Positions 35,297-64,000 of a stretch of 64,000 nucleotides of DNA are shown here, piece by piece. The notes below the pieces were generated by a model, which made no database searches, was not told where the DNA came from, and saw only the letters and a list, made by a program, of their open reading frames with translations. Source of the DNA: Thermodesulfobacteriota bacterium (lineage in GTDB: Bacteria; Desulfobacterota; Desulfomonilia; UBA1062). The stretch covers positions 17,770-81,769 of the forward strand of contig DAISYU010000001.1 of the NCBI GenBank assembly GCA_036825155.1. Direction: 5' to 3'. The first letter of the stretch is position 1; every line of letters begins with the position of its first letter. The position numbers were made by a program, and so were the translations under genes.

Positions 35297-35313
35297 ACTC
35301 CCTCCTTCGTATC

Positions 35314-48958: not shown

Positions 48959-50020
48959 ATGACGGATATATATGAGCAATTGCGCAGGCGCCTCGATGAA
49001 ATGGCCACGGGATATCCCGCGACCGAAAGCGGTGTGGAGATCAGGCTGCTGAAACAGCTGTTCCGTCCGGAAGATGCCCGGATGTTCCTCTCAATGAGTA
49101 CATACGCACAGACTGCCCGTGAAATTGCGGAGAGGACAGGGACAGATACGGACACCACTGCAGCAGTGCTTGAGGATATGGCGCTTCGAGGGCTTGTATT
49201 CAGAGAACGCACAGAGGGGATGAGCTACTACCGGGCGATCCCTTTTATTGTCGGGATCTATGAGTTTCAGATCAATGCCCTCGATGGGACGATGCTCAAG
49301 AACGTTTCCGAGTACTATCTGTCGGGATTGGGTCAGTCGTTCCACTCCCTGAAGACCCCGCACCTGCGCACGATCCCTATCAACAGGGACCTGGTGTCGA
49401 AGTGGCCTGTTGCAACCTATGACGATGCAGTCTCGATTATTGAGAGAAAAGACCGCATTGCCGTGGCCCCGTGTCTCTGCCGCAAGGCGGTCCGTATGTA
49501 CTCTAAAGGCTGTGACCACCCACTGGAGACCTGTCTTCAGTTTGATACGTTCGCGGATTACTATGTGGACAACTCCATGGCACGCTACATTACCAAGGAT
49601 GAGGCTCGTGCCATCCTTGCCCGCAGCGAGAAAGAGGGCCTGGTTATCCAGACTGCGAATTCCAAAGAGGTGGAGGCCATGTGTTCCTGCTGTTCCTGCT
49701 GCTGCGGCATGCTTATCTCGCTCAAGCTGTTCCCTGCGCCGGCCCGCGAAGTGAAGAGCAACTATGTCTGCACCTCGAATGAAGGTTCGTGCACCCTCTG
49801 CGGTATGTGCGTCAAGCGCTGCCCCGTTGATGCCGTTGAACTTCTTGAAGAACATGCACATACCCATGAAGAACGCTGCATAGGGTGCGGGCTGTGCGTG
49901 AGCACCTGTCCTGCCGAAGCACGAACCCTTACAAGGAAGCCTGAAGAGAAGATCTATACCCCTGCGGATACGTTTTTCGACACCTTTGAACAGATGTGCG
50001 AGGAGCGCGGCAGGGATTAA
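48959..50020 (+). CDS. 4Fe-4S binding protein with N-terminal winged-helix-like region
   Basis: PCLCRK, CSCCSCCC, and two CxxCxxCxxxCP motifs at the C-terminus; 353 aa. Confidence 0.88.
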   Translation: MTDIYEQLRRRLDEMATGYPATESGVEIRLLKQLFRPEDARMFLSMSTYAQTAREIAERTGTDTDTTAAVLEDMALRGLVFRERTEGMSYYRAIPFIVGIYEFQINALDGTMLKNVSEYYLSGLGQSFHSLKTPHLRTIPINRDLVSKWPVATYDDAVSIIERKDRIAVAPCLCRKAVRMYSKGCDHPLETCLQFDTFADYYVDNSMARYITKDEARAILARSEKEGLVIQTANSKEVEAMCSCCSCCCGMLISLKLFPAPAREVKSNYVCTSNEGSCTLCGMCVKRCPVDAVELLEEHAHTHEERCIGCGLCVSTCPAEARTLTRKPEEKIYTPADTFFDTFEQMCEERGRD

Positions 50021-50026
50021 GGCTTA

Positions 50027-50971
50027 CTACGGATGCTTGCTCTCACTGTTTTTCTGCCGGTAGCGGATCAGCCGGAAGAACGAGCCCCAGAACCAGTGGG
50101 TCAGTTTGTGCAGGTGTATGCCGATACCTTGCCCGAAGATGGTCCAGCCCAGTTTGCGATGCCACTTGATGAACAGACCGAAATGGCTGCTGGAGACCTT
50201 GCCCCCTCTGATGTACCAGCATTTGGGTGCGAGCTTCGGTTTCCACTTGCCGGTGATGACCTTCAAGACTTCCAGGGCGGCCAGGCTTACCGCCATCCAT
50301 TCCACAGTACAGATGAGGGCAAGGGGCCGTTTTCCGAGGAAATAATCCCAGAACCAGTCTACACGCCAGTCTCCCGCGGTGATGAAGTTGTATTGCGCAC
50401 ACCGGTACTCCCGGGAATGCACGACCTGTTTCAGCCCGTTGTAGTTGAGCGTGGGCACGCCGAATACATCCTCGATGGTCGGGGTTTCCGGTGTAAAGAC
50501 GCTGATCCATCCGATGGATCCGGACGGCAGGCACAGTACGGCAGGTTTCTCAAGTTTCCTGGCAGCCCGGAAGATGAGGACGCTGTATGAAAGGTCATCC
50601 ACTGCAGGGATCACCACGTCGCATTGCTCGATCAGTTGATCCAGGTCTTCTTCAGTGGGGAGCGTGTGGAACGAGGTAACCTGTGCAGCGGGGTTGATTT
50701 TCAGAATTGTCTCGGACATCAGGGTGATCTTGTTTTCGCCTATCGTATCTGTGAAGCATCCGATCTGACGGTTCATGTCACCGGCCTCGTATATGCCCTG
50801 GCCGGCAAGGATAAAATGTTCAACCCCGCACCGAGACAGCAGTAATGCAAGCGTCTCGCCGGAACCGCTGTCGCCGATGATCAGCACCTTAACAGACCTG
50901 ATACGTTCCTGATCATCCTCGGTGAAGACCCCGTAGTTTCGTTCGAACAGGGCCTTGTACGTCAGGTCCAT
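50027..50971 (-). CDS. ThiF/HesA/MoeB (E1-like) family protein, degenerate nucleotide-binding motifs
   Basis: RNYGVFTE..Q.RI..KVLIIG start; P-loop reads GDSGSG; EAGDMNRQ replaces DxxxxSNxNRQ; Trp-rich C-terminal extension. Confidence 0.85.
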   Translation of the reverse strand: MDLTYKALFERNYGVFTEDDQERIRSVKVLIIGDSGSGETLALLLSRCGVEHFILAGQGIYEAGDMNRQIGCFTDTIGENKITLMSETILKINPAAQVTSFHTLPTEEDLDQLIEQCDVVIPAVDDLSYSVLIFRAARKLEKPAVLCLPSGSIGWISVFTPETPTIEDVFGVPTLNYNGLKQVVHSREYRCAQYNFITAGDWRVDWFWDYFLGKRPLALICTVEWMAVSLAALEVLKVITGKWKPKLAPKCWYIRGGKVSSSHFGLFIKWHRKLGWTIFGQGIGIHLHKLTHWFWGSFFRLIRYRQKNSESKHP

Positions 50972-50993
50972 TGTCCCCCCTCAGGGAATTTCA

Positions 50994-51959
50994 TCAAGGC
51001 TTACTCCCCCTGCGCTCGCGAAAATGCCCCCATGCAATGAACAGTTTCCACCAGATCTCCTGAGCCCACTCCAGTACGGGTGACAACCTGGTCTGAAACA
51101 GGCGCCACATGATCTTCCGCTGCCAGACCAGCAGTGTCTGCAGGTTCAGACCGCCTATGCGGTTGATCCTGATGGCGTTCGCGGTGATATTCCAGTAGCG
51201 AGGCGATACTACCGGCTTCCATTTGCCGCTGAGCACCTTGAGCACCTCGAGCGAGCCGAGCGACGAACACAGCCACACAGAGGGGGCTATATGGGTGGGG
51301 GAAGAATCCTCCTCGATAAAGGAGCGGTAGTAGTCGATCCTCCAGTCGGCAAACGGAACATAGAAGTACGTGCCGAACTTGTATTTTCTGATGGCGAGCA
51401 TTTCCTTGAGCTCTTCATACGATCCCAGTGTGGGTACTCCCTCGATGTCCTCCACCGGTGGACTGTCCGGCATGAGTATGCAGACATTCGCCCAGGTGCC
51501 GGATGGGAATATCAACAGGGCAGGTACCCCCAGTCTCTGGGCCTCCCTGAATACGATTACACTGAATGCAAGATCGTCGGCAGCGGGGAATACCACGTCA
51601 ACCCTGGGAATCAGCTCGGAAATCCTCTCATGGTTCAAGAGCTCGGGATATACCTCCACCTGGGCATCAGGATTGATCTTCATGATCTGCTCTCGTATGA
51701 CCTCGGCCTTGTTTCTGCCCAGCGTGTCGGTAAAACAGGCAATCTGCCGGTTCATGTTGGAGAATCCGTAGTTGTCGAATTCCACCAGAATGAAATTACT
51801 CACCCCTGAACGGGCAAGAACAATAGCGACAGTACCGCCAATGCCGCCGCACCCGATAATGAGGACTTTCGAGGTACGGATACGGTCCTGTTCTTTCTCG
51901 GTGAAGACTCCGTAGTTTCTCAGGAAAAGCTCTTGGTAGCCAGGTAGTATATTCATCAA
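50994..51959 (-). CDS. ThiF/HesA/MoeB (E1-like) adenylyltransferase family protein
   Basis: KVLIIGCGGIG, EFDNYGFSNMNRQ, GRNKAE, AADD; no CxxC zinc sites; Trp-rich C-terminal extension. Confidence 0.9.
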   Translation of the reverse strand: MMNILPGYQELFLRNYGVFTEKEQDRIRTSKVLIIGCGGIGGTVAIVLARSGVSNFILVEFDNYGFSNMNRQIACFTDTLGRNKAEVIREQIMKINPDAQVEVYPELLNHERISELIPRVDVVFPAADDLAFSVIVFREAQRLGVPALLIFPSGTWANVCILMPDSPPVEDIEGVPTLGSYEELKEMLAIRKYKFGTYFYVPFADWRIDYYRSFIEEDSSPTHIAPSVWLCSSLGSLEVLKVLSGKWKPVVSPRYWNITANAIRINRIGGLNLQTLLVWQRKIMWRLFQTRLSPVLEWAQEIWWKLFIAWGHFRERRGSKP

Positions 51960-52603
51960 TCCTTTCTTCTATGATGCAATCTGACAGGCAACAGCCCATG
52001 CACAAGTGTAGACAGGAGACATGCTGCTCCCGCACCGATTGCAACGTAGTATGGTTGCAGAAAATACATGAAGACATCGACGTCCACAGTGTAGTGTATA
52101 ATGCCAAGGCCGACAACCGGCATATCCACCAGGGTGCATGCAAACAGAAGCGATCCGAAGAATCCCGCTGCATAGGCAAGCATGAACAAACCGCTCCACA
52201 TGATGAAGAGCCGCCCCTTTTTCCCGGGCATGGTGCTGCCCCAGAAGGCAAGGAACAGGTATCCGAAAAGAACCACCGGGAGCAGTATGACCGCTATGAT
52301 CGGGGTTTCGATAACATACTTGAAGCCTTCAGGCGGAAGATTGTGGATCAGGATGAAGGGATACGCATCGATGGTATACATCCTGTCGTAGACATCTCCG
52401 CGCCACCAGGGGAAGAAGATGGTGCTGAAAAAGACGATTCCGGCAGCCAGGCCGAAAATATTGTAGATGGTGAATTCACGGAAGTGGCCGGTAAACGTCT
52501 TGAGTATATGCCTCATACCCTGGGGATTTGATTCATCCTGCGCCAGACTCCGGCGCGTTGCATCATCGATGAAGATGTTTTCCAGGATCTTAAGAAATTT
52601 CAT
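51956..52603 (-). CDS. Hypothetical membrane protein (about 4 TM)
   Basis: 215 aa; stop overlaps the ThiF start (ATGA). Confidence 0.8.
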   Translation of the reverse strand: MKFLKILENIFIDDATRRSLAQDESNPQGMRHILKTFTGHFREFTIYNIFGLAAGIVFFSTIFFPWWRGDVYDRMYTIDAYPFILIHNLPPEGFKYVIETPIIAVILLPVVLFGYLFLAFWGSTMPGKKGRLFIMWSGLFMLAYAAGFFGSLLFACTLVDMPVVGLGIIHYTVDVDVFMYFLQPYYVAIGAGAACLLSTLVHGLLPVRLHHRRKD

Positions 52604-52695
52604 ATTGTTCCCTTTATAGGTTCAGCATGCGGAAAAATCAAGACAATCGTCCCGGATTCAGGTGTTGCTGCCGCTGTCTTCTCATCCACAGAGCT

Positions 52696-54030
52696 TCAGC
52701 CGGCCAGCACGGCGTCTACTGCATGTGCGAGCTTCTCCTTCGCGGCTGCGATGACATCAGCATCGGACCAGAGAAAGGCCAGCAGGTCCTCTGCCCGGAT
52801 ATGCGCAAAACACAGCAGCAGGATCGGGCAGATTCCGAGCGTCATGGCCAGGGCCGTCTTCTTCTCCCAGGTGTCATATTCATCCGCTGAGCCTGTGGGC
52901 ACAATGCGAGGTATGCCGGATCCGAACATGCGGTAGAACTCAAGTGAGACAGCTCCGGTATCTGAGCTGTTCGCAGTATCCACTGAAGCTGAATGGTTCG
53001 AGGCAAAGAGATCTATGTGCGAGCAGGCTTCCTCGGTAGGAGTGGTCTGGTCCAGCCCTGCAGCTGCGGCAGACGGGTCGATCCCGTTTTCGATACAGTG
53101 TTTCAGCAGCACAACGGCATCAGCCGGGCGCTTCTTTGACAATGCGGCGAATCCTTCATGGTCCAGCAGGAAGACCCCCTGTTTCTTTCCTGCTTTAAAA
53201 AGACTGTGCGAACCAGCCTGAGGGAACTCGAGATAACTCATGCAGGGAAACGGACAATGGTAGCATGCATGGGCCTTCTTGAAATGTTTCTTGATCAGTT
53301 GAGAAGCGGCCTCGCCGGAACCCATGCTTTTCTGCACCACAAACCGGGGGGTGCTGTACTGGTTCTTCAGTGCCGAAGCCATGGGGCCGCTCATTTCTAT
53401 GGCGTGTTCAGGGAAGCGGATCCCTCCGGCAGCCTTCAATGCAATGGCCCGTATATTCTTCTGCCCGACCGCGCAGCCCAGAGAAGCCTTGTCCAGACTG
53501 CCCCAGAGCCCGGTGGAGAGGCAGGCATGTGCAGAGGAGTTATCCGCGGCATTGCCCGTGAGCAGGACGATCTCGGGACAGTTCCTGCCTCGGGCCAGCA
53601 GCAAGTCTTCCCGCTTGGAAAGATCTCCTGCGAGGGTATCGCCTGGAGTGATCCTGATGGTATTGTCTATCAGCTCGATGATCACGGGGGTCTCGCTGCG
53701 GCCTGTGATCACAAGGAAATCAATCCCCGAGAATTTCAGCTGTGGCCCCGTATTGAGCATGAAGGGGACATGCATCACCTTGTTCCCGTTCGAGTAAAAG
53801 CTTGCCGTCATCAGGCACGATGCCGGGGCAAAACTTCCGGTGAGAGGTCCGGTGCCGAATACCAGAGGGGCGTTGTCTGCATAGCGTTCGAGGAGCACGG
53901 TGCTGAGGCGGACCCCTCCTGTATGCTCGGCGAAGAGTTCAGAGGGAAGATCTATGGTCTCCACTGATGAATTCTCGAGATTCACCAGCGCCATCTTTGC
54001 ATTATAAAAAGGGGTCATGAGTACGTCCAT
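52696..54030 (-). CDS. Degenerate aldehyde:ferredoxin oxidoreductase (AOR) family paralogue
   Basis: AOR N-domain traits (LVFGTGPLTG, GPQLKFSGIDFLVITG, KNIRAI), ACYHCPFPC and LGIC; lacks EYET and DPR. Start at ATG 54030 or coupled ATG 54018. Confidence 0.8.
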   Translation of the reverse strand: MDVLMTPFYNAKMALVNLENSSVETIDLPSELFAEHTGGVRLSTVLLERYADNAPLVFGTGPLTGSFAPASCLMTASFYSNGNKVMHVPFMLNTGPQLKFSGIDFLVITGRSETPVIIELIDNTIRITPGDTLAGDLSKREDLLLARGRNCPEIVLLTGNAADNSSAHACLSTGLWGSLDKASLGCAVGQKNIRAIALKAAGGIRFPEHAIEMSGPMASALKNQYSTPRFVVQKSMGSGEAASQLIKKHFKKAHACYHCPFPCMSYLEFPQAGSHSLFKAGKKQGVFLLDHEGFAALSKKRPADAVVLLKHCIENGIDPSAAAAGLDQTTPTEEACSHIDLFASNHSASVDTANSSDTGAVSLEFYRMFGSGIPRIVPTGSADEYDTWEKKTALAMTLGICPILLLCFAHIRAEDLLAFLWSDADVIAAAKEKLAHAVDAVLAG

Positions 54031-55313
54031 GCTTTGACTTCTCCTGGAATGGTTTTCTGCCAGCGAAAGCGGATCTTTGCGGAGCTGTACGGGCAGGTGT
54101 CCACACAACGCATACACAAGATACACTCGTCCATGGGGATCTTGGGCGCGGTCCCCTCTCTGAGGGCTTCACGGTCGATGATGCCCATGGGGCAGATGTC
54201 GGCGCACTGCATACAGGAAAACTTCTTGCACTGCTTGGCCCCGATCACGATCTTGATCAGGCCTATCTTGGCCGCCAGAGCCAGTACGGCACCCACCGGA
54301 CAGAAGTAGCGGCACCATGACCTGCGCTGTCCCAGTTCAAGGCTTGCGATGGCAGGCACAATGGCAAGTTCTGCTCCCTGCAGCACCCCCGATACCCCGT
54401 ACGACCTGCAGATGCTTCCGATGGGGCATACCGTGCAGAAGGGCTGGAATCCCAGGCCGGCAGCCCCGCCGATCGCTCCGCCAAGGATCCCGTACTTGAT
54501 CATGCGGCTTTTCAGAAATTTCGGCAGGCCGAACTTGGGGACGACAGAGCCCACCAGGTCGAGGAAGAACCCGAAGGGACATACCCATCCGCAGAAGGCC
54601 CTGCCAAGAAGGATAGTCAGTACGATGAGCACGAGGGCAGCACCGGCGCTGGCGAACACGATATGCTTGGTTGCGGCGATATTCTGCAGGGTCCCGGTGG
54701 GACAGGGCAGAGAGACCACCCCTGCCGTGAAATAACAGAACGTGCCCACGAGGACCACCACCAGGAGCAGGAATGAGAGCAGCTGTACCGGCCAGCGCAG
54801 ATATTTGATCCATCCTACGGCCTTACCCCGATAGAAGTGCAGTGCCCCTTCAGGACAATGTTTGACGCACAGGGGGTCACCCTCGCACAGGTCGCATTTT
54901 CTGATCTTGCCGGTCACCGGTTCCACCATCGGGGCCGATTCAGGACAGGCAAGGGTGCAGATCCCGCATTCCACACAGAACAGGCGCCTGATGCGCACGA
55001 TTCCTTCATCGTCCTTGTCGATCGCGCGGGTAGGGCAGGCTTCCAGGCAGAGGGGTTCTCTGCAGTGCAGACACAGGGCCGCAAAGTTCTTGCCTTCCTC
55101 TTCGTTGCGCAGGACCTTTATGCTTGACGACGCCGGCGCCACTTTGTCCACATTCCGGTTGGAACAGACCATCTCGCAGGTCGAACACCCGGTACATTTT
55201 GAGGGATTGAATACAATGACCGGCGGATGTCTGGGCAGTTTCTTCTTGGCAGGCAACGGTCTTAAGTCCTTGATATCTATATATTCAACTTGTTTCTGGG
55301 CAGCTTCGGGCAT
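54015..55313 (-). CDS. Fusion of a 4x[4Fe-4S] ferredoxin (DmsB/CooF-like) and a NapH/MauN-like membrane polyferredoxin
   Basis: CTGCSTCEMVC, CLHCREPLCLEACP, CVECGICTLACP, CDLCEGDPLCVKHCP; then TM helices with CGWVCPFG, CTVCPIG, CRYFCPVG, and two C-terminal clusters. Confidence 0.88.
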   Translation of the reverse strand: MPEAAQKQVEYIDIKDLRPLPAKKKLPRHPPVIVFNPSKCTGCSTCEMVCSNRNVDKVAPASSSIKVLRNEEEGKNFAALCLHCREPLCLEACPTRAIDKDDEGIVRIRRLFCVECGICTLACPESAPMVEPVTGKIRKCDLCEGDPLCVKHCPEGALHFYRGKAVGWIKYLRWPVQLLSFLLLVVVLVGTFCYFTAGVVSLPCPTGTLQNIAATKHIVFASAGAALVLIVLTILLGRAFCGWVCPFGFFLDLVGSVVPKFGLPKFLKSRMIKYGILGGAIGGAAGLGFQPFCTVCPIGSICRSYGVSGVLQGAELAIVPAIASLELGQRRSWCRYFCPVGAVLALAAKIGLIKIVIGAKQCKKFSCMQCADICPMGIIDREALREGTAPKIPMDECILCMRCVDTCPYSSAKIRFRWQKTIPGEVKAWTYS

Positions 55314-55330
55314 CCCTCTCCCCTTTCTCT

Positions 55331-55786
55331 TTACGCATTCCTCAGCAGATATACTTTACGCCTGCAGGCGGGACACATTTCAAGGTATCCCTTGGGTTCA
55401 TCCTTGAGTCGCTCGGTGATAAAGTCCATGACGTGCAGTGCAGCGAAGAGTTCACCGCAGCAGGTGCAGGTGCGGATATCCTTGACCGTTCCCTGCTGGA
55501 TGGCCAGTTGTCTGAGTCCTTTTATGAGATCGCGGTCACTCACCCCTGCAGGGCATACGTCGGTGCCGGCATTGCACTCGGTGCAGTACCAGATGTATTC
55601 GTCGGCAAGGATATCCTCTCCCATCATGACCTTCTTGATCACCCCGCGCGGTGACATCTCGATGGAAAAATTCGGGTACATCTCTGCCATGGGGCACACT
55701 GCCACGCAGCGGCCGCACTCCACACAGCTGTGCGCACCGGAGGCAGTCATGATATCTCTAATCTCTTTTGCACTCTTCATCTTCAT
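55331..55786 (-). CDS. HdrC-like 4Fe-4S protein with C-terminal CxxC...CxxC
   Basis: CVECGRCVAVCP, CTECNAGTDVCP, CTCC...CPAC; ATG 55786 overlaps the fdhA stop (ATGA). Confidence 0.85.
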   Translation of the reverse strand: MKMKSAKEIRDIMTASGAHSCVECGRCVAVCPMAEMYPNFSIEMSPRGVIKKVMMGEDILADEYIWYCTECNAGTDVCPAGVSDRDLIKGLRQLAIQQGTVKDIRTCTCCGELFAALHVMDFITERLKDEPKGYLEMCPACRRKVYLLRNA

Positions 55787-57813
55787 TCCTTCTCCATACG
55801 AGCAGCACATGCCTTGAATTCCGGTATCTTCGAGATCGGATCGAGTTCCTCGATGGTCAGTGCGTTGGCCGGTGCCTCTCTGAAGTGGAACGGTGCAAAG
55901 ATCGACCCTTTCCTGACCCGGGAGGTGATCTTCGCATTCGTGCTGATGGATCCCCTGCGTGTACTCACCCTGATGGCGTCACCGTCTCTGATACCCAATG
56001 AATGTGCATCCGCAGGACTGATCTCCACAAAGGGCTTGTCCACCTCTCGGTGAAGGAAATGCGATCGCCTGGTCATTGTGCCGGTATGATAGTGAGAGAA
56101 CATACGGCCGGTAATGAGCGTATACGGATACGTTTCGTCTGGCATTTCTTTGGGCGGCGTATAGCCCGGGACAACAAAGAGTCCCTTTCCGCGTGAGAAT
56201 CTGCCTTCATGGAGAAAGCGGGTACCGGGATGTGTGTCTTCCGGACAGGGCCATTGCAGACCGGCGCTTCCCAGTCTGTCGAAATGCACACCACCCATAA
56301 TCGGGGTGAGTGACGCGACCTCATCCATTACCTCGCCGGGGTCGGCATATGGGTAATCAAGTCCCAGCGCCTTTCCCATCATGCACAGGATGGTGAAGTC
56401 GTCCCTGGCGTCTCCCGGTGGTTCGACGGCCTTGCGGAGCAGCTGGATCCTCCGCTCGGTATTGGTAAAGGTGCCGGTCTTCTCCGCGTAACATGCACCC
56501 GGCAGCACCAGGTCGGCGAGTTTGGCGGTCTCGGTCAGGAAGATATCCTGCACGATCAGGAAATCGAGTTTGTGCAGGGAGTCGATCACATGACTCTGGT
56601 TCGGATCGGACAAAACAGGATTCTCCGCCATAATGTACAGTGCGCGGATCTTCTTTCCGGCCGAGCCAATGATCTCCGTGACAGTCATGCCGGGGGTAGG
56701 TGAGAGTTCCCTGCCCCAGGCATCCTCGAACTTCCTGAGGATATTCGCATCGGCAACGGTCTGGTACCCGGGGTAGACATTGGGAAGCGCCCCGAGGTCG
56801 CACGCCCCCTGCACATTGTTCTGCCCCCTCAAGGGGCAGATACCCGAGTGCGGTTTGCCGACATGTCCGCACAGCATGGCAAGATTGCATATGGCAAATA
56901 CGTTGGCAGTGCCGCAGGCATGCTGGGTGATTCCCATACAGAATACAATGGATGCTTCCTGCGCGCGGGAATATATCTCTGAAACCCGCGCGATCTCTTC
57001 GGCTGCAATCCCTGATTCATCACTGGCCTCCTCGACGCTCCACCCTGAAAGGTATGCATCCAGCGCATCAAAGGCCTCGGTCCTCTCATTGATGAAATCA
57101 CGAGCCTCCAGGCCCTGGTCGAGAATGTACCGCATCATGCCGTTTATCAGCGGGATGTCGGTGCCGGAGTTGATCTGGAGATGGATGTCGGCGTTGGCAG
57201 CCACCTCGGTTCTCCTGGGATCCACCACGATCAGTGTCGCCCCGTGATCTTTGGCCTTGTAGATCTCGCCCATGATGATGGGGTGGGTTTCCGCAGCGTT
57301 GGAACCGAAGATGATGATACACTCAGCCCCGGTGAAATCGCTGATGGAGTTTGTCATGGCACCGCTGCCCAGGGCCTGCGCCATGGCAGCTGCCGTGGGA
57401 CCGTGACAGAGCCGTGCACAGTGGTCGACATTGTTGGTCTTGAACCCGGCTCTGATCAGTTTCTGGAACAGGTAATTCTCCTCATTGGTGCACTTTGCGG
57501 AGCTCAGTCCGGCAACGGCGTCCGGACCGTAGCTCTCGGCTGCTTCCTTGAGCTTCTTCGCAGCGAGATCGATTGCCTCCTCCCACGATATTTCCTGAAA
57601 CTCTCCGTTCTTCTTGAGCAGGGGCCGGGTGAGCCTGTCCGGATGATGGATAAATTCGTGGGCTGCCCAGCCTTTGATGCACAAGGTACCTTTGGCTACG
57701 GGATGTTTCCTGTCAGGCAGGGTCCTGATGGCCTTGCCGTCTTCAACCTGCAGGATAAACCCGCACCCGGTGCCGCAATAAGGACAGATCGTCTTTACAA
57801 AATCACGTTTCAT
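55783..57813 (-). CDS. fdhA: Cytoplasmic formate dehydrogenase alpha subunit (FdhF-type, Cys-ligated Mo/W-bis-PGD)
   Basis: TICPYCGTGC, SSAKCTNEENY, HCARLCHGPT (Cys, not Sec), PLRGQNNVQGACD, HYHTGTMTRR; no Tat signal. Confidence 0.95.
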   Translation of the reverse strand: MKRDFVKTICPYCGTGCGFILQVEDGKAIRTLPDRKHPVAKGTLCIKGWAAHEFIHHPDRLTRPLLKKNGEFQEISWEEAIDLAAKKLKEAAESYGPDAVAGLSSAKCTNEENYLFQKLIRAGFKTNNVDHCARLCHGPTAAAMAQALGSGAMTNSISDFTGAECIIIFGSNAAETHPIIMGEIYKAKDHGATLIVVDPRRTEVAANADIHLQINSGTDIPLINGMMRYILDQGLEARDFINERTEAFDALDAYLSGWSVEEASDESGIAAEEIARVSEIYSRAQEASIVFCMGITQHACGTANVFAICNLAMLCGHVGKPHSGICPLRGQNNVQGACDLGALPNVYPGYQTVADANILRKFEDAWGRELSPTPGMTVTEIIGSAGKKIRALYIMAENPVLSDPNQSHVIDSLHKLDFLIVQDIFLTETAKLADLVLPGACYAEKTGTFTNTERRIQLLRKAVEPPGDARDDFTILCMMGKALGLDYPYADPGEVMDEVASLTPIMGGVHFDRLGSAGLQWPCPEDTHPGTRFLHEGRFSRGKGLFVVPGYTPPKEMPDETYPYTLITGRMFSHYHTGTMTRRSHFLHREVDKPFVEISPADAHSLGIRDGDAIRVSTRRGSISTNAKITSRVRKGSIFAPFHFREAPANALTIEELDPISKIPEFKACAARMEKE

Positions 57814-58657
57814 GGTTCACCTTCAATGAATCCAGCCACCCGGGCTCCATGAGGGGCGGGCACGGCTCGATAGTCAGATCGCTGAGCACCGGAGAGAGCC
57901 GCTCCAAATCTGTTCCGGCTTCATATCCGTAATTGTTTGCCAGGGTTTCACGCATGGCAACCTGCAGAAGCATCAGGGGAATATTGACCGGGCAGGCATC
58001 CGTACATCCGCCGCAGGCAACGCACGTATCAGACAGGTGAAATGCCCTGATAAGGTGGTAGGACACCATATCCGCAGGGATCTCGCCGCGTCTGACCCAC
58101 AGATCGTCTTCCAGTTTACAGGGTTCACATACACAGATCGGACACGAATTTCTGCATCCGTAGCATTTGATACACCTGCTGAGTTCGGCCGCCCAGTGCT
58201 GCATCCGTGTGCCTGGATCGTCCGAAAGAAACATTCTTGCCCGTTCATCTTCGCGGGGATCAAATCCCTCTGACTTCTCACCCAGGGCGATCGAGGCAGG
58301 GTAGGGTTTTGTACACAGGCATATTCGAGCCTGCTCGGCACTGCAGGCCAGTCCTATGACATGCAGGCGTGCAGGGTCGAACTGGTTGCGCTTGGAAAGT
58401 TCATTCAAGGCCCGTTCATCACAGCCCCGGCAGATGATGCCCAGCCGGTAGTCTTGTGGGGACGAGCGCAGGATGTTCATGGCCAGCTTGGCAAGCAGCC
58501 ATTTGGGCTCAAGTTCCAGCATACCGGTCTCCGCGGCAACCTCGAAGACATACGGATAGGGTTCGTCTTCCACCCGTGCCAGAGCCAGCACCCCGTCAAC
58601 CAGGCCTTCTTCGAGTGCGTTTTTGGCCTTGAGCCGTGCATCTTCTACTAGACTCAC
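57803..58657 (-). CDS. FdhB/FlxC-like 4Fe-4S subunit
   Basis: CRGCDERA, IGLAC, CIKCYGCRNSCP, CVACGGCTDACP; GTGA-coupled to mvhD. Confidence 0.85.
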   Translation of the reverse strand: MSLVEDARLKAKNALEEGLVDGVLALARVEDEPYPYVFEVAAETGMLELEPKWLLAKLAMNILRSSPQDYRLGIICRGCDERALNELSKRNQFDPARLHVIGLACSAEQARICLCTKPYPASIALGEKSEGFDPREDERARMFLSDDPGTRMQHWAAELSRCIKCYGCRNSCPICVCEPCKLEDDLWVRRGEIPADMVSYHLIRAFHLSDTCVACGGCTDACPVNIPLMLLQVAMRETLANNYGYEAGTDLERLSPVLSDLTIEPCPPLMEPGWLDSLKVNHET

Positions 58658-59142
58658 GTATCACCTCTTCTGTAATCGTTCATATTTGACCGTGACCATG
58701 CCTGAACCGGCGGCAGATCCTGAAGCCTGCGATAAAACTCCCCGATGACATCTGCAAACTGATGGTGTTCATGGGCGGTGCCGAAGCTGGTGAAGAGGCG
58801 TCGGGAATCAATCCCCACCGTATCCAGCAGCGGTCTCAAGAGTTCAAGCCTTTTGGCTGCACGGTGGTTGGCGTTATTGTAGCGGCAGCCGCCCAGGTGG
58901 CAGCCCATCACCGCTACACCGTCTATTCCCGAGGAAAAAGCCCTGATGACCGCGTCAGCCTCGACACGTGAGGCACATTCCACCGGGATGACCCGGAAAT
59001 TCACGGGAAGCTGTACCTTGTTCTTTCCTGCCGCATCTGCACCGATAAGCGCGCACCACTTACAGGCAAATACCACTACCTTTGGTGCTGCGTTGTGTCG
59101 GGTGCTCTCGGCATGATCACTCAGCAGTATCTCTTGTGTCAT
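58654..59142 (-). CDS. mvhD: MvhD/FlxD-like [2Fe-2S] subunit
   Basis: FACKWC...GADAAG, VECASRV, GCHLGGCRY. Confidence 0.92.
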   Translation of the reverse strand: MTQEILLSDHAESTRHNAAPKVVVFACKWCALIGADAAGKNKVQLPVNFRVIPVECASRVEADAVIRAFSSGIDGVAVMGCHLGGCRYNNANHRAAKRLELLRPLLDTVGIDSRRLFTSFGTAHEHHQFADVIGEFYRRLQDLPPVQAWSRSNMNDYRRGDT

Positions 59143-59155
59143 AGCGCACCTTCTC

Positions 59156-60862
59156 TCAACTAAAAGCAGCTTTCAGCATCTCTCCGATGAGGAGAGCGTT
59201 TTGTTCCGGCAGCTGGATCGAACCGTTGGGACAGACCGAAACGCAGCTCCCGCAACCGGTACAGCGCATCTGACTGACTGTGCTCTTGTATGCTCCCTGA
59301 TCCGCCTCCAGGCTGCAGGCATCATAGGGGCAGATGGCCACGCAGTTTCCGCACCCGGTACATGCCTGCCGGTCCACCAGGGCCAGGGAAAATTTACGTT
59401 CCTTAAACTGGCTGATTTGTGTGGCCGTGAGCTGATCAGTGTTCAGCAGGGCAAAGGCCTTCATTGCGGCCGCTTCACCCTGCAGGATCGCTGTGCGGGC
59501 CAGCACCGGCCACCTGGCGGACCCGCAGACCAGCACACCGTCTTTGGTAGTCTCCAGGGGATGCATCAGAGAGCGCACCTCGTAGAAACCATGTATATCA
59601 CGATTGAGGTCGAACAGTTCAGCCACTCTGGCGGCATCGTCATGCGGGATCAGCGGAGAGCTGAGCACCACCAGTTCGGCATCAATTCGCCGTTCTCTGC
59701 CGGTGATGACATCATAAACCCTGATTTCCTCCACCTGTTCGGCGCCGAGGATCCCCGGGGGTGTGTCCTGATCGTACCGGACGAACCGGACGCCCGCCTC
59801 CATTGCCTTGCGGTAATAGTCCTCCAGAACACTGCCGGGGCACATGATATCCCGGTGGAGTATCGTCACCTCAGCATCCGGGTTTTCCTCCAGGAGCTGT
59901 ATTGCCTGCTTCAGGGACACCGGGCAGCAGATAGCCGAACAGTACGGTCTGTCGGCATCACGTACGCCCACGCACTGGATGAAGACAGCGGAGGTGACCT
60001 TCATGCCGGGGCCCTTGAAACTCCGTTCGAGCTCGATGCCGGTGATAACCCCCTTGAGCTCCTTGTACCGGTATAACGATCCCGGCAGGTTGACCCGTGC
60101 ACCGGTTGCTATGATGACCGCCCCGACATTGATGCTCTTGACATCACTACCGGATGTGAACTCGACGGTGAAATCGCCTGCAGACCCTCGCACAGCGGAA
60201 ATTCGACTGCCGGGATAGTAGCGAACCAGGGGGGAGTTGCCCACTGTGTACAGGAAAGCCTCCACATGTTGTGGGGTTCCGTCGGTTTCAGGGGCAATCT
60301 TCTTGATCAGGTTCAGCAGGCCACCCGGGGTCTTGGCCCGGTCCAGGAGGTGTACCGTAATCCCCAGCTTCACCAGGGAAGCGGCAGCGGAGATCCCTGC
60401 AGGTCCTGCCCCGATAACGAGCACTTCCTGCTTCGGTTCGATCGTCAGATCTTCAGAATAGTTACGCTGCACCAGTGCGGCGATACCCATATTTATGAGA
60501 TCACCGGCTTTTTTTGTGGCTGAGGCGGGGTCATCACGGTGTATCCAGGCACATCCCTCGCGGAGATCCACCAGTTCTATATGTTTCGGATCAATGCCTC
60601 TTTTCTGAAGCCCGGTGATTATCGCATCACCCCTGGCCAGGAAGGAACAGGCCCCCAGCAGAACCCTGGATTCCGGTGAAAGGGGGATGCGCTTGGCCAG
60701 CTCATCGATATTCTCTTCAAGACAGAGAGACTTTACCTTTTCACACGATACGATCCGGGGATGATGCTCGAGTCCCTTGCGGATTGATTCAAGATCGACA
60801 ACATCGGAGATCTCACCGTAACACTCGCAGAGAAAGCACCTGGTTTGTTTGTTGTCTTCCAC
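59156..60862 (-). CDS. HdrA-like FAD/Fe-S flavoprotein (QmoB-like architecture without fused MvhD)
   Basis: N-terminal HdrA domain (CFLCEC, GACS, LREGCAWIH), GAGPAG, FIQCVG...CSAICC, two C-terminal clusters; GTG start overlaps the upstream TAG. Confidence 0.9.
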   Translation of the reverse strand: MEDNKQTRCFLCECYGEISDVVDLESIRKGLEHHPRIVSCEKVKSLCLEENIDELAKRIPLSPESRVLLGACSFLARGDAIITGLQKRGIDPKHIELVDLREGCAWIHRDDPASATKKAGDLINMGIAALVQRNYSEDLTIEPKQEVLVIGAGPAGISAAASLVKLGITVHLLDRAKTPGGLLNLIKKIAPETDGTPQHVEAFLYTVGNSPLVRYYPGSRISAVRGSAGDFTVEFTSGSDVKSINVGAVIIATGARVNLPGSLYRYKELKGVITGIELERSFKGPGMKVTSAVFIQCVGVRDADRPYCSAICCPVSLKQAIQLLEENPDAEVTILHRDIMCPGSVLEDYYRKAMEAGVRFVRYDQDTPPGILGAEQVEEIRVYDVITGRERRIDAELVVLSSPLIPHDDAARVAELFDLNRDIHGFYEVRSLMHPLETTKDGVLVCGSARWPVLARTAILQGEAAAMKAFALLNTDQLTATQISQFKERKFSLALVDRQACTGCGNCVAICPYDACSLEADQGAYKSTVSQMRCTGCGSCVSVCPNGSIQLPEQNALLIGEMLKAAFS

Positions 60863-62085
60863 TATTGTTCCTCCCCCACATGCACCCGAAGCGCAGCCGA
60901 TGATGCCTGGACAACAGATGCCTCGACATCCATTGGTTCACGGCAGAATCCGCAGGACTTTATAGTTGGACTGATACCGCTGAGCAGCCCCTCGGTATCG
61001 AGTATGGGACTGTACCCGGAGTCCTTTGATTTTGCCAGGGACGGCTGCAGTGCCCCGTTGAGCACCACCATGTCGAACTTCCTGATCTGCCGTGACTGGG
61101 TTATGGTATTCTCATATTTTACGGCGATCCCGTCTTCGTCAGGCATGGGATAAATAAGTCCCGGTCTTCCCCTGAGGAGCTCAATGGACGAACCGCCTAT
61201 CTCCCTTAGATAGTACTCATAGTAGTGTCTGCCCTCGGCACGCATGTCAGTGAAGAAGATGACGCATTGCACCTGCGGATTGCGCCGCTTTACCCACTGG
61301 GCCTGTTTGAGGGCATGCATGCAGCAGACCGCCGAACAGTAGGGAAAGAGTCTCAGGTCCCTGGCTCCGGCGCATTGGATGAATGCGATGCTTGCAGGCT
61401 GCTTGTTGTCTTGCTTTTTAACAACGGTTCCCCGGTTGAGGCCGGACTCGGCAGTCCATTCTTCGAACTGCAGGGAACTCATGATATCGGGATGGGTCCC
61501 GTAGCCGTATTCCTCGAGGGGTGAGATGTCGTAGTCCTGAAATCCGGTGGCCCAGATCACGTCCCGGGCAAGGATCTCGCTTGAAGCGGCTTTTCTGTTA
61601 ATATCAATGGCGGAGGTGGGACATACATCCACACACTTACCACAGAGGGTACATTTTTCTCTATAAATATAGTATGATGGCGGGTATGCATGTGCACCCA
61701 GGGTGCTGATGGCATCGACGCCGCATGCGGGCACACACCTTCCACATGAGATACACCGGTTCTCGTCGATATACCGGGGGTGTTCATCCACGACCACCTT
61801 CAAGGCCCCGTCGGTCTTGGTGATGGTGTTGATCTCGGCGCAGGTATGTACGGTGATCAGAGGGTTCAGCATACAGTTGCGTACTTCGGTCCAGAGAGGA
61901 CAGAAGGCACAGTGATCCGTGGGATAGAGCTTGTCAAGGGCTGATACCTGTCCACCCAGGGCAGGGCCTTTCTCCACCAGATGCACGGCGGTCCCTGCTC
62001 TTGCCAGATCAAGGGATGCCGTGATCCCGGCGACTCCACCGCCGATGACAATGACTGGTTTCATGTGAGGGGGCTTGGCAGACAT
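60862..62085 (-). CDS. HdrA-like FAD/Fe-S flavoprotein (short form with inserted ferredoxin domain)
   Basis: GGGVAG, LDKLYPTDHCAFCP, two inserted CxxCxxCxxxC, FIQCAG...CSAVCC; 407 aa. Confidence 0.9.
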   Translation of the reverse strand: MSAKPPHMKPVIVIGGGVAGITASLDLARAGTAVHLVEKGPALGGQVSALDKLYPTDHCAFCPLWTEVRNCMLNPLITVHTCAEINTITKTDGALKVVVDEHPRYIDENRCISCGRCVPACGVDAISTLGAHAYPPSYYIYREKCTLCGKCVDVCPTSAIDINRKAASSEILARDVIWATGFQDYDISPLEEYGYGTHPDIMSSLQFEEWTAESGLNRGTVVKKQDNKQPASIAFIQCAGARDLRLFPYCSAVCCMHALKQAQWVKRRNPQVQCVIFFTDMRAEGRHYYEYYLREIGGSSIELLRGRPGLIYPMPDEDGIAVKYENTITQSRQIRKFDMVVLNGALQPSLAKSKDSGYSPILDTEGLLSGISPTIKSCGFCREPMDVEASVVQASSAALRVHVGEEQ

Positions 62086-62096
62086 GGGTGCTCCTC

Positions 62097-62786
62097 TTAC
62101 TTATTGATCAGGCCATAGTGACTGGCCAGCTTCCTGATCCTGCTTCCCAGCCACTCCCCGAAACTCGGCGGCGGGAAATCATAGGGGCCGACATTATCCT
62201 CTTGTTTAAGAGCAAGGATCTTTTCGGAAGGTTGAAAGCGTTTGACCTTGTCGTAATATACCACGATCGATTTTGGATCGGTGGGGCAGCGGGTAAAACA
62301 TGCGCCGCAGCCGATGCACTTGTCCTCGATGACTACGGGATTCTTCCGGTCCTCCAGTTCAATAGCGTCATACTTGCATGCCTTGTAGCAGTTACGGCAA
62401 CGACGCTTGTTGGTCCAGGCGAGACAGGTGTCCCGGTTGATGACCGCGTTGCCGATGTCAAGGTCCTCTTTGGCAACCTTCTTGATCGCACCGGTGGGGC
62501 AGGTCCTGATGCATTCCATGCACAGGATGCACTTGCGCCAGTCCAGTACAGGGGTGCCGAGATTGGGGATGCCGTCAAAGATCGAGGCCGGAGACAGAGC
62601 GTCTGCAGGGCAGACGTCAATGCAGCGGTAGCAGCGGGTACAGTGTTTGAGGAACTCCGCTTCCACGAGTGAAGCAGGAGGCCGGGGCAGCGCCTTTGCC
62701 CCGCTGACCTTGAACACGGTAAAGACCGCACCAGAGGCCACGCCACTGATCAGAATTTTCATAAAGTTCCTGCGCGAGTTCTCCAT
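62097..62786 (-). CDS. NapG/MauM-like ferredoxin with twin-arginine signal
   Basis: SRRNFMK, LPRPPAS...EFLKHCTRCYRC, four Cys clusters. Confidence 0.85.
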   Translation of the reverse strand: MENSRRNFMKILISGVASGAVFTVFKVSGAKALPRPPASLVEAEFLKHCTRCYRCIDVCPADALSPASIFDGIPNLGTPVLDWRKCILCMECIRTCPTGAIKKVAKEDLDIGNAVINRDTCLAWTNKRRCRNCYKACKYDAIELEDRKNPVVIEDKCIGCGACFTRCPTDPKSIVVYYDKVKRFQPSEKILALKQEDNVGPYDFPPPSFGEWLGSRIRKLASHYGLINK

Positions 62787-62831
62787 CGTGGTTCTCCAGG
62801 TTCACTTCCAGAGTATGCAGTTCTACATAGG

Positions 62832-62860
62832 AATATAATTGGTTAGTTGCATTCAGTAAA
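62832..62860 (-). promoter_or_regulatory. Candidate internal sigma70 promoter for the napG-like to thiF block
   Basis: On the - strand TTTACT-17 nt-TATATT, about 45 nt upstream of ATG 62786. Confidence 0.45.
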
Positions 62861-62886
62861 GAGGGGGCTTGAAAAAAGCCCCCTCT
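62860..62886 (-). terminator. Hairpin after the AOR gene
   Basis: AGAGGGGGCTT-gaaaa-AAGCCCCCTCT (11-bp stem) 15 nt after the AOR stop, with a short U-tract. Confidence 0.65.
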
Positions 62887-62900
62887 GATATCAGCCGTTG

Positions 62901-64000
62901 TTAGGCCTTTCTTGCTGCCTGCATATCTTTGATTGTGTAATCCAGACCGAGATTCTTGAGGGTATCGTCGGTTGGAATACCATTGTCATCCCAGCCGAAG
63001 TAGTCGAAGACATCTTTCTGCATCTTCTTGACTTCCTCTTCCGGGAAAACAGCATCCTTCTTCGGGCCCTCTGGAAGTTTCTCGTTCTTGAGCCGCCAGG
63101 GCAGTGTATCGTCCTTGGCACGGACGCCTTCACGCACCTGGAAGCAGCGCTCCAGCGTCATGATGCGTTTGGACGTGGTCCAGTACTCTTCGTCGGTCAT
63201 GTTCCAGCCGCACAGCGGGTTGAGCATTGCGATGAAGACCCCTGGTGTTTCCTTGCCCCACGGGTAGCCACCCACGAATGAGCACATGGTGAGCGAGTTG
63301 ATCATGGTCCAGCGTGCCAGTGTTTCCGCGGAGGTTCCCTCATGGTGGTCGCCGCCGCAGGTACCCAGGGCATAGCTGAATGCACGTGCCTTGTCACCAC
63401 GAGGATCGTGCGCTGCGACTTCCTTGCCTTTGACATGCACGGCCCACTTATAGGAATCCTTGCCGATCTCCTCGGACATCTTCTTGACGCCCTTGGCCAG
63501 CAGTTTTCCTGCACCTTCCTGATAAGCGATCTTCCTGATCATCTCGACAGAGGCATCGCCATTGCCGAACTCCAGGTTGATGCCGTCCAGGTCCTTGGGT
63601 GTCAGAACGCCGCGCTGGACACACTCCATGGCGAAGGCCAGACAGCCGCCGGTGGAGATGGAGTCGAGCCCCAGGGCATCGGTCAGCTCGATGCAGGCCA
63701 TCATGTCGTCAAAGTTGGAGAATCCGAGGTTGGAACCCAGCAGTCCGCCGGTTTCATATTCAGGCCCCTCAGCGATCAGGCCGTCATATTTACCGCCGCG
63801 GATGACACCGGTTTTCATGCAGTGTACCGGGCAGTGGTTACAGGCGGTATGCTTTTTCCAGAATTTCCTGTTGGCCTCTTCTGCGCCGAGTTCAATGATG
63901 TCCGGCCACCAGGTGGTCTGGAAGTTCTTGGTGATGAGAGAACCGGTGCCGTAATGCTTAAGCTCCAGCAGTCCACCGGTACCCCAGCGCTTGATGCCCT
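62901..64000 (-). CDS. aor: Tungsten aldehyde:ferredoxin oxidoreductase (AOR family), 5'-truncated by the window edge
   Basis: Frame open to the window end (GIKRWGTG...); TACNHCPVHC, GPEYET, GLDSIS, HDPR, GGDH, LTMC, YFGWDDNGIP. Confidence 0.92.
   Translation of the reverse strand, partial: GIKRWGTGGLLELKHYGTGSLITKNFQTTWWPDIIELGAEEANRKFWKKHTACNHCPVHCMKTGVIRGGKYDGLIAEGPEYETGGLLGSNLGFSNFDDMMACIELTDALGLDSISTGGCLAFAMECVQRGVLTPKDLDGINLEFGNGDASVEMIRKIAYQEGAGKLLAKGVKKMSEEIGKDSYKWAVHVKGKEVAAHDPRGDKARAFSYALGTCGGDHHEGTSAETLARWTMINSLTMCSFVGGYPWGKETPGVFIAMLNPLCGWNMTDEEYWTTSKRIMTLERCFQVREGVRAKDDTLPWRLKNEKLPEGPKKDAVFPEEEVKKMQKDVFDYFGWDDNGIPTDDTLKNLGLDYTIKDMQAARKA

Follow-up and report, generated by a model that had tools for sequence, protein, structure and literature searches.

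Gene order and conservation of the operon

Here we describe an operon on the minus strand of a 64,000-nucleotide stretch of the genome of a Thermodesulfobacteriota bacterium (contig DAISYU010000001.1; hereafter, the window), in which genes for a tungsten enzyme of the AOR family, two HdrA-like flavoproteins, MvhD, a formate dehydrogenase and a NapH-like membrane protein follow one another. Their products are predicted, with fairly high confidence, to form a membrane-associated single redox system with a periplasmic AOR part. The listing of open reading frames and profile searches of the window place 13 co-directional and mostly overlapping genes from the AOR gene to the second of two ThiF genes, in agreement with a first-pass annotation of the same DNA, which had reported twelve consecutive minus-strand genes downstream of an AOR gene. 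A check of the junctions also confirmed that the widest gap among those twelve, from the napG-like gene to the second ThiF gene, is 92 nt, the gap between the AOR and napG-like genes being 114 nt. As for the four start/stop overlaps of the ATGA or GTGA type that had been claimed, three are as described (GTGA at 58654-57; ATGA at 55783-86 and 54015-18), while the junction at 51956-59 reads TTGA, the stop codon there abutting an ATG start.

The end of the window cuts the AOR gene, which we call WorL (62901-64000 and beyond), leaving its C-terminal 366 codons (AFOR_C, 335 bits). When the locus was followed past position 64000, as had been proposed, on contigs carrying identical proteins, the first gene of the operon was found directly upstream of the AOR gene; it encodes WorS, a polyferredoxin of 235 amino acids (aa) with a twin-arginine translocation (Tat) signal. 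Further upstream, these contigs carry a P-II-like gene and genes of an RND efflux system. A scan with Rfam for molybdenum or tungsten cofactor (Moco/Tuco) riboswitches or other RNAs gave no match at the gathering score in the window or in the upstream flank on contig L002. The operon core comprises 11 genes, from WorS to the AOR-like gene described below.

Conservation was assessed with one genome per species, using an alignment of the NapH fusion protein as the query, followed by tblastn of all window proteins against the returned loci; 80 loci were listed, the window's own species being outside these 80. The order WorS-AOR-NapG-HdrAshort-HdrAlong-MvhD-FdhB'-FdhA-HdrC-WorS'::NapH-AOR-like is kept in at least about 30 species representatives, belonging to the Syntrophales/Syntrophaceae, the Desulfobacteraceae (including the cultured Desulforapulum autotrophicum HRM2, whose cluster occupies about 1.636-1.649 Mb of CP001087), the Syntrophobacteraceae and the Desulfovibrionaceae. 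Since this order recurs in so many species, the arrangement is not due to chance, and the proposal that aor, napG, two hdrA, mvhD, fdhAB, hdrC and fdx::napH belong to one unit holds. Among the matches listed, a Desulfomonilia metagenome-assembled genome (MAG) carries the nearest named relative of this fusion protein, with 82% identity.

A divided HdrA unit with formate dehydrogenase and without HdrB

The two HdrA-like proteins are unequal. HdrA-short (407 aa, 60862-62085; 298 bits against the HdrA2 model, 237 bits against HdrA 5odc_A) aligns to residues 146-562 of 5odc_A, which correspond to the FAD/thioredoxin-reductase-like domain and the inserted 2x[4Fe-4S] ferredoxin domain, and is devoid of the N-terminal and C-terminal HdrA domains; its motifs read GGGVAG and CAGARDx7CSAVCC. 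HdrA-long (568 aa, 59156-60862; 316 bits against the HdrA2 model) aligns to residues 7-234 and then 307-635, skipping residues 235-306; it has the N-terminal cluster domain, a FAD domain without the inserted ferredoxin domain, and the C-terminal 2x[4Fe-4S] domain, with the motifs GAGPAG and CVGVRDx5CSAICC. The FAD motif and the CSxxCC cluster motif are therefore present in both. Because the HdrA domains are divided between the two proteins, a heterodimer of them would hold exactly one complete bifurcation unit; judged by sequence, the domain complement of HdrABC-type bifurcating complexes is present, although spread over two polypeptides. The following gene encodes MvhD, the [2Fe-2S] electron-transfer subunit (58654-59142; PF02662 FlpD, 131 bits), which also matches the MvhD-like end of the HdrA2 model (127 bits).

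The HdrC-like 2x[4Fe-4S] subunit (55331-55786, or to 55810 if an upstream ATG is used; Fer4_8) scores 60, 51 and 50 bits against HdrC models and 36 bits against the qmoC model, all under the cutoffs, and its gene always adjoins that of the NapH fusion in the loci sampled. Its tail, CTCCG...CPAC, was considered as a hidden miniature of the CCG domain of HdrB and rejected: the conserved pattern is a four-cysteine knuckle, CxxCG...CPxC, kept in 15 of 16 loci (it is broken in L018), and not a CCG domain. In addition, a search for the CCG domain (PF02754) was negative for the 13 proteins of the block, for all other genes of the window and for the flanks of the cluster in relatives, to 10 kb on either side, and the first-pass statement that the block has no HdrB stands.

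Between MvhD and HdrC lie the genes for the formate dehydrogenase. The gene that had been called fdhB-like (57803-58657, 284 aa) does encode an FdhB homologue, here FdhB', though a centrally truncated one: it matches FdhB of three solved methanogen Fdh-Hdr complexes (114 bits for 9t1s_M, 109 for 7bkb_E, 101 for 8rvu_E), the alignment pairing its residues 12-107 with 30-126 of FdhB and its residues 118-253 with 242-376; about 115 central residues are absent, and Pfam gives no FrhB/FdhB match. In one Desulfovibrio MAG, MvhD and FdhB' are fused. FdhA (55783-57813) scores 830 bits against TIGR01591, whose cutoff is 666; it has no signal peptide, pointing to a cytoplasmic location, and its motifs HCARLCHGP and RGQNNVQG contain the Cys-His pair and the Arg of the family. 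An in-frame TGA, coding for selenocysteine, occupies the position of the catalytic Cys in the Syntrophobacter orthologue, and alternation of selenocysteine and Cys at this position is typical of active formate dehydrogenases. By these sequence features the protein is a formate dehydrogenase alpha subunit of the FdhF/FdhA type, that of the window being a Cys-type catalytic subunit for formate oxidation or CO2 reduction.

FdhA is not universal in the cluster, and formate is thus not necessarily a fixed partner. By tblastn, the visible cluster is without FdhA in L012, L039, L044, L045 and L047, while in L014, L040, L041, L042 and L048 the gene comes after that for NapH or the AOR-like protein; the moved or missing copies concern the Desulfovibrionaceae and some other variants. 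This mobility, together with the occurrence elsewhere of NapG-NapH pairs on their own, is what could be expected if the operon merely co-transcribed separate enzymes that are coupled neither physically nor energetically, one a periplasmic tungsten oxidoreductase (WOR) with NapGH, the other a soluble FdhAB-MvhD-HdrA. We give this a slim chance: the modules are interleaved in a fixed order, with NapG before the Hdr genes and NapH after HdrC, their genes share start/stop overlaps, and HdrC would be left without an acceptor subunit.

A probably exported tungsten oxidoreductase and its predicted membrane anchor

Intact WorL has 603 aa. A full-length copy lies on L002 (6151-7962), and over the 1100 nt shared with the window the two differ at 2 positions. 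A split AOR gene (117 aa + 267 aa) was considered as a case of selenocysteine, frameshift or pseudogene and discarded, as the split comes from a run of N in three NCBI MAG contigs (L001, L003 and L005), the ENA contigs being intact. Against solved structures, WorL is nearest to true aldehyde oxidoreductases, scoring 331 bits with PfAOR (1aor), 328 bits with WorL of AmWOR1 (9mqx_D) and 303 bits with WOR5, and only 181 bits with BamB (4z3w); with the YdhV model NF007354 it reaches 210 bits, the cutoff being 868. The motifs CNHCPVHC, C477, EGPEYET and GGDHHEG are invariant in 12 orthologues. Both AFOR_N and AFOR_C, the [4Fe-4S] ligands and the pterin and catalytic motifs are present, by which WorL is classed as a member of the AOR/WOR family. 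That neither aldehydes nor acids are the substrate, and that the enzyme would turn over some other low-potential compound in the manner of BamB or of the inactive class V CsWOR41, appears highly improbable: although BamB is an AOR-family reductase and a class V WOR was inactive with 46 aldehydes (PMC13328260), WorL stands far closer to 1aor than to BamB and keeps the EYE and DHH motifs.

WorL has no signal peptide of its own, but its predicted partners do. WorS, a four-cluster polyferredoxin (Fer4_11), carries the N-terminal twin-arginine motif TRRGFLKG. The arginine pair is kept in 7 loci, and all orthologues with an available N-terminus show an equivalent motif. The NapG-like polyferredoxin (62097-62786; Fer4 domains; 90.9 bits against the NapG model NF007012, under the cutoff of 269) begins with SRRNFMK followed by a hydrophobic stretch, and its arginine pair is kept in 15 loci. 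The signal of WorS lies outside the window; the first-pass annotation, which had noted a Tat signal on the NapG-like protein alone, accordingly treated the AOR as cytoplasmic. Export of a signal-less catalytic subunit that hitch-hikes with an iron-sulfur partner bearing a Tat signal is the usual arrangement for such enzymes. Because WorS and the NapG-like protein carry conserved Tat signals, WorL and these two proteins are most likely periplasmic. From this probable location it follows that any coupling to HdrA must cross the membrane and be electrogenic, which changes the energetics of the proposed confurcation.

A relative in the Firmicutes, Desulfitispora alkaliphila DSM 22410 (L050, 1932-11776), supports the outside location of the WOR part. 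Its cluster encodes WorL, WorS, a Tat-type NapG-like protein, a cysteine desulfurase, two TatC, a flavoprotein and a plain NapH without the N-terminal domain described below; WorS has a Tat motif followed by a lipobox (TRRTFMIG...LSGC), the flavoprotein (777 aa, of the GltD/NuoF-like NAD(P)H iron-sulfur type) is encoded directly before napH, the second tatC gene comes after it, and no Hdr or Fdh genes are found in the cluster. Taken together with the conserved Tat signals, the lipobox and the tatC genes speak against the first-pass proposal of a cytoplasmic AOR, docked on HdrA, whose low-potential electrons would be passed on directly and confurcated with quinol electrons. The lack of a signal peptide on WorL itself would fit that proposal, yet it is equally what hitch-hiking export entails, and we regard a cytoplasmic AOR as very unlikely. 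Because Desulfitispora keeps the WorLS-NapGH core with a NAD(P)H flavoprotein beside NapH, its gene content further suggests an adaptor role for NapH, which would connect an external WOR to redox modules of the cytoplasm that can be exchanged.

In the operon, NapH is a fusion (54015-55313; Fer4_5, Fer4_11) of a WorS-like polyferredoxin and a NapH-like protein, with a four-cluster N-terminal domain, two Cx3CP motifs and a C-terminal 2x[4Fe-4S] domain. It scores 114.9 bits against the NapH model NF007013, under the cutoff of 234, and its N-terminus matches the PadI and YdhY models. This N-terminal domain is, from its 34% identity with WorS over 158 aa (E 2e-17), a WorS paralogue, and it would form, next to the usual dicluster domain at the C-terminus, a second and separate iron-sulfur domain on the cytoplasmic side. 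Across 19 homologues, 33 Cys are invariant: 16 in the N-terminal domain, corresponding to four cubane clusters, 8 in the C-terminal domain, corresponding to two clusters, and 9 in or near the membrane part, among which fall both Cx3CP motifs. Hydropathy places transmembrane helices at about 182-200, 218-236 and 340-358. The NapG-like and NapH-like proteins share with genuine NapGH the Tat signal, the two Cx3CP motifs and the dicluster architecture, while their scores stay below the equivalog level and the nap operon context is absent; on sequence grounds they are thus NapGH-like and not NapGH.

The WorS-like domain was found on NapH only where the Hdr module is present: in the loci sampled, HdrC lies upstream in all of the fusion loci (L016-L049), and Hdr genes occur in none of the plain NapH loci (L050-L095). 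This co-occurrence fits a need for two separate cytoplasmic wires once a bifurcating flavin is attached.

The last gene of the core encodes the AOR-like protein (AORN, 444 aa, 52696-54030; AFOR_N, 96 bits), for which Pfam gives no AFOR_C match. Its AlphaFold2 model has a mean pLDDT of 91.8, its significant Foldseek matches are AORs alone and span the entire trimmed fold (TM 0.72-0.76, normalised to the query), and profile-profile comparison with WorL (hhalign) gives a probability of 99.9%. The [4Fe-4S] ligands C256, C259, C263 and C401 are invariant in 38 sequences, whereas WorL residues R79, R183/R189 and E318/E320 (EYE) are not kept. The first-pass designation of an AOR-like gene is hence right as to the fold and the cluster ligands, which are retained in sequence and model, though the gene appears to be a degenerate paralogue that has lost pterin and catalytic residues. 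It is probably a WorL-derived iron-sulfur subunit without tungstopterin chemistry, and we read it, with the N-terminal domain of NapH, as a putative cytoplasmic WorS'-WorL' pair mirroring the periplasmic WorS-WorL pair. The idea that the mirror extends to function, the AOR-like protein being a second, cytoplasmic catalytic WOR and an acid/aldehyde cycle running across the membrane, is weakened by the loss of those same residues.

Proposed electron flow, genomic setting and relation to known systems

The reading that we favour, while giving it somewhat less than an even chance, is that of a three-arm membrane-spanning supercomplex in which formate/CO2, menaquinone and a periplasmic acid/aldehyde couple meet at one HdrA flavin. 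Electron pairs would pass between formate/CO2 and that flavin by way of FdhA, FdhB' and MvhD. The high-potential branch would run from the cluster of the HdrA N-domain to the HdrC-like subunit, the C-terminal clusters of NapH and the menaquinone pool, NapH replacing HdrB or the membrane half of QmoC; menaquinone is here a reasonable inference by analogy, because an HdrC-like protein followed by a membrane subunit occupies the position of QmoC in Qmo. The low-potential branch would leave HdrA-short at its ferredoxin domain, enter NapH at the WorS-like domain, cross the membrane to the NapG-like protein, and then reach WorS and WorL, the Tat-exported tungsten AOR that would handle, on the periplasmic side, the acid/aldehyde couple of about -580 mV, while the AOR-like paralogue would cap the cytoplasmic WorS-like domain as an iron-sulfur or structural subunit. 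Such a system could work in both directions. Periplasmic aldehyde and menaquinol would together reduce CO2 to formate (confurcation, the syntrophic mode), or else the electrons of formate would go to menaquinone and to a periplasmic acceptor of very low potential. With one arm crossing the membrane, either reaction would be coupled to the membrane potential.

It is a further and more doubtful step to see in the operon the first flavin-based bifurcation or confurcation with one of its three arms outside the cytoplasmic membrane, directly electrogenic and served by a two-wire NapH; the two wires, one to quinone and the other to a transmembrane iron-sulfur relay, share the same tentative standing as part of that reading.

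Several points weigh against the three-arm arrangement. Complex formation and the involvement of quinone are predicted from the genes, and both directions of flow are compatible with the sequence. To our knowledge, the passage of electrons from the cytoplasmic NapH clusters to NapG is not established even for genuine NapGH. The AlphaFold2 model of the NapH fusion is too poor to be used (pLDDT 43.7, pTM 0.25), and the topology of the protein relies on hydropathy and on the published topology of NapH. NapG-NapH pairs stand alone in other contexts (L061-L093), where the periplasmic part could work on its own, and FdhA is displaced or absent in several variants of the Desulfovibrionaceae and Desulfobacteraceae. 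Neither a physiological source nor a use of aldehydes in the periplasm is apparent, and the flanking genes are not conserved. Finally, electrons of aldehydes moving inward would cost membrane potential, and confurcation to formate would be thermodynamically marginal: aldehyde and menaquinol should yield formate only at low formate, the more so as inward transfer runs against the membrane potential, while the opposite flow, from formate to menaquinone together with a very low-potential reduction in the periplasm, should be favourable.

Other arrangements of the same parts must be considered. The low-potential arm could be soluble ferredoxin, with a Qmo-type formate:menaquinone/ferredoxin bifurcation on one side and, on the other, WorLS-NapG as a respiratory aldehyde:menaquinone oxidoreductase sharing the NapH anchor. 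The inserted ferredoxin domain of methanogen HdrA, to which HdrA-short is homologous, reduces ferredoxin or polyferredoxin, and NapGH is known as a quinol dehydrogenase. Moreover, HRM2 is an autotroph requiring reduced ferredoxin (PMC2702500), class V WORs have been proposed to be respiratory (PMC13328260), and the "U-type" WorSL has been read in the same way (PMC12318220). On the other hand, a soluble ferredoxin would leave unexplained why the WorS-like domain of NapH and the capping AOR paralogue occur solely where Hdr is present, and electrons at -580 mV delivered to menaquinone alone would waste most of their energy. We consider this arrangement unlikely, though not negligible.

It is also conceivable, though quite unlikely in our estimation, that quinone takes no part: the NapGH-like pair would be a transmembrane iron-sulfur wire through which periplasmic aldehyde oxidation drives cytoplasmic reduction of CO2 or ferredoxin in an electrogenic loop, the HdrA pair serving as an ordinary flavoprotein of electron transfer that does not bifurcate. 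Desulfitispora, which joins the WorLS-NapGH core to a GltD/NuoF-like NAD(P)H flavoprotein, would fit, as would the nine invariant Cys of the membrane domain, which could hold relay clusters, and the difference of about 150 mV between the aldehyde and formate couples, which matches a typical membrane potential. Nevertheless, the two HdrA proteins still have between them one full set of bifurcation domains, the HdrC-like protein with its membrane subunit mirrors the quinone-interacting QmoC, and NapGH homologues are described as quinol dehydrogenases.

Downstream of the operon core, three further genes complete the block: a membrane protein of 215 aa with about five hydrophobic (transmembrane) helices by hydropathy (51956-52603), for which Pfam and NCBIfam give no match, and two ThiF/MoeB-family adenylyltransferases, ThiF1 (50994-51959; PF00899 137 bits, PRK08223 134 bits, and matches to ThiF and MoeB models) and a second one (50027-50971; PF00899 112 bits, and matches to the NCBIfam ThiF and MoeB models). 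Among the loci listed, the three are found together in L028 and L036 only; in genomes of the Syntrophaceae and Desulfobacteraceae the AOR-like gene is the last of the operon, and in Desulfovibrionaceae and Syntrophobacteraceae variants a single ThiF follows. From this distribution they are regarded as a lineage-specific tail of the operon. The three are probably maturation factors, ThiF1 probably acting on the pterin cofactor. In two archaeal MAG contigs (L054, 21-1900; L069, 9325-12100), ThiF-family genes 38-41% identical to ThiF1 directly follow NapH-like genes, and because of this position the link of ThiF may be to the NapH module rather than, or besides, pterin synthesis. In a Desulfovibrio MAG (L012, 7586-12454), three MoeA-type genes, one of them fused to a periplasmic-binding-protein-like domain, adjoin a variant cluster, which fits a dedicated insertion of the tungsten or molybdenum cofactor. 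An ABC transporter at 21596-24512 of the window's minus strand, with an SBP_bac_11 (ModA-like) binding protein, a permease and a TOBE-domain ATPase, likely serves molybdate or tungstate uptake, in the same window as the two pterin enzymes.

On the plus strand, convergent to the last gene of the operon, a gene at 48959-50020 encodes a protein of 353 aa in which an N-terminal helix-turn-helix (HTH) of MarR/TrmB type is followed by a Cys-rich middle part and, at the C-terminus, by a 2x[4Fe-4S] domain. The protein could be a regulator that senses redox state; every contig of the same species has it, but in other species it is not beside the cluster. At 3.4 kb from the operon end lie, also on the plus strand, an AdhE-type aldehyde/alcohol dehydrogenase (Aldedh and Fe-ADH domains, 886 aa; 43944-46604) and then two CoA-transferase subunits (46783-48646), an adjacency not conserved in other cluster-bearing genomes. 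AdhE, the CoA-transferases, the HTH-Fer4 protein and FadL were accordingly rejected as conserved neighbours. The window further encodes a set for fatty-acid degradation (2166-3380, 28063-29739, 34148-36084, 39353-40777, 12357-13691 and 41330-42700), made up of an acyl-CoA dehydrogenase, an AMP-forming ligase, a 3-hydroxyacyl-CoA dehydrogenase with enoyl-CoA hydratase, a FadL-like outer-membrane channel and two acetyl-CoA hydrolase/transferases, which is consistent with a fatty-acid-oxidising host of the Desulfobacterota. A hybrid-cluster (prismane) protein is encoded at 30798-32432 on the minus strand (575 bits), and three putative open reading frames of 301-338 aa have no Pfam match (4463-5368 and 37255-38271 on the plus strand, 43020-43952 on the minus strand).

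The closest known systems each share part of this gene set. The methanogen Fdh-Hdr and Fdh-Hdr-Fmd complexes (FdhAB-MvhD-HdrABC; 7bkb, 8rvu and 9t1s) have the same FdhA, FdhB, MvhD, HdrA and HdrC homologues as neighbours, and in Fdh-Hdr-Fmd a polyferredoxin carries electrons from the low-potential exit of HdrA to a tungsten/molybdenum-pterin enzyme, which the model of class II benzoyl-CoA reductase also puts at that exit. Compared with the methanogen complexes, the operon has neither HdrB nor a heterodisulfide, its FdhB is shorter by the central segment already mentioned, HdrA is two unequal proteins instead of a homodimer, and the complex is predicted to be membrane-bound through a NapH-like subunit, with an apparently periplasmic AOR as the pterin enzyme.

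QmoABC likewise has a short HdrA-like flavoprotein and a long one, the latter with MvhD function, as well as an HdrC-like module on a quinone-interacting membrane part, has no HdrB, and has been proposed to confurcate; by analogy, the division between HdrA-short and HdrA-long follows the logic of QmoA and QmoB. The membrane part of Qmo is, however, a dihaem cytochrome b, whereas that of the operon resembles NapH and is built on iron-sulfur clusters; MvhD and HdrC have genes of their own here, and the partners are Fdh and a WOR instead of APS reductase. No apr genes occur in the window or its flanks, and neither the linkage to aprBA nor the HdrE-type cytochrome b that mark QmoABC is present.

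The class II benzoyl-CoA reductase BamBCDEFGHI unites an AOR-family tungsten subunit and a polyferredoxin with HdrA-like and MvhD-like modules, and its high-potential acceptor is thought to lie at the quinone level. In contrast to Bam, WorL is of AOR and not of BamB type, the mid-potential module is FdhAB, and the tungsten enzyme has a Tat-exported partner; the block gives no Pfam matches for BamD (CCG) or for BamGHI (NuoE/NuoF/NuoG-type).

Class V (Ydh-type, clade 41) WORs and the "U-type" clade-87 WorSL resemble the operon in having a Tat-type WorS, a further Tat iron-sulfur protein and a quinone-related membrane subunit, and like it they await biochemical characterisation. The class V combination of a WorS with a Tat signal and an associated membrane subunit is, as predicted from sequence, found here, and yet WorL does not appear to belong to the YdhV-like clade 41 (about 77 kDa), being shorter (about 700 aa are expected) and scoring under the YdhV cutoff; moreover, its membrane subunit is NapH-like and not a cytochrome b. 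Neither the Hdr/MvhD/Fdh module nor the cytoplasmic WorS'/AOR-like pair is mentioned in the class V or "U-type" papers. Finally, NapGH offers the Tat-exported four-cluster NapG and a NapH with two Cx3CP motifs and a cytoplasmic dicluster domain, whereas the operon lacks napA, napB and napC and its NapH has the extra four-cluster domain at the N-terminus.

The first-pass suggestion that the combination is undescribed holds for the mechanism and not for the locus. The 2009 genome paper of HRM2 drew the locus around hdrA, naming mvhD, fdhB, fdhA, a ferredoxin, an Fe/S protein and "Aor5" (Fig. 4 legend), and proposed no mechanism (PMC2702500); no later use of the locus names was found in the literature. 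A 2025 structural study of a bifurcating WOR mentions a rare, uncharacterised "U type" clade-87 WorSL beside a quinone-related membrane dehydrogenase, again with no mechanism (PMC12318220), and this probably refers to the present cluster. The WOR classification of 2026 restricts the periplasmic, membrane-linked class V to the YdhV-like clade 41, builds the bifurcating class IV on WorABC or Bam, and contains no description of a WOR with a Tat-type WorS joined to Hdr/MvhD/Fdh (PMC13328260). In the published literature covered, to which Pereira et al., 2011 (Front Microbiol 2:69) and Appel et al., 2021 (BBA 1862:148379) are external, no description of the complex or of its mechanism was found. 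The locus has thus been glimpsed before but not characterised, and it combines known kinds, HdrA-based bifurcation and membrane-linked WORs, without being a categorically new system.

The operon bears on how HdrA modules lacking HdrB connect to the quinone pool, which concerns both the mechanism of Qmo and the high-potential acceptor of class II benzoyl-CoA reductase, on how syntrophs raise quinol-level electrons to formate or H2, and on the role of membrane-linked, Tat-exported tungsten oxidoreductases. These three bioenergetic questions are united in one compact and conserved gene set, whose carriers include the cultured and sequenced HRM2 as well as abundant uncultured Syntrophales. Should the parts prove to be separate enzymes, the locus would still define an uncharacterised type of respiratory WOR outside clade 41. 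If, instead, one arm does lie outside the membrane, formate, menaquinone and a periplasmic couple at -580 mV would be energetically linked, providing syntrophic oxidisers of fatty acids and alcohols with a route for the re-oxidation of menaquinol, or else allowing a very low-potential periplasmic chemistry assisted by the membrane potential.

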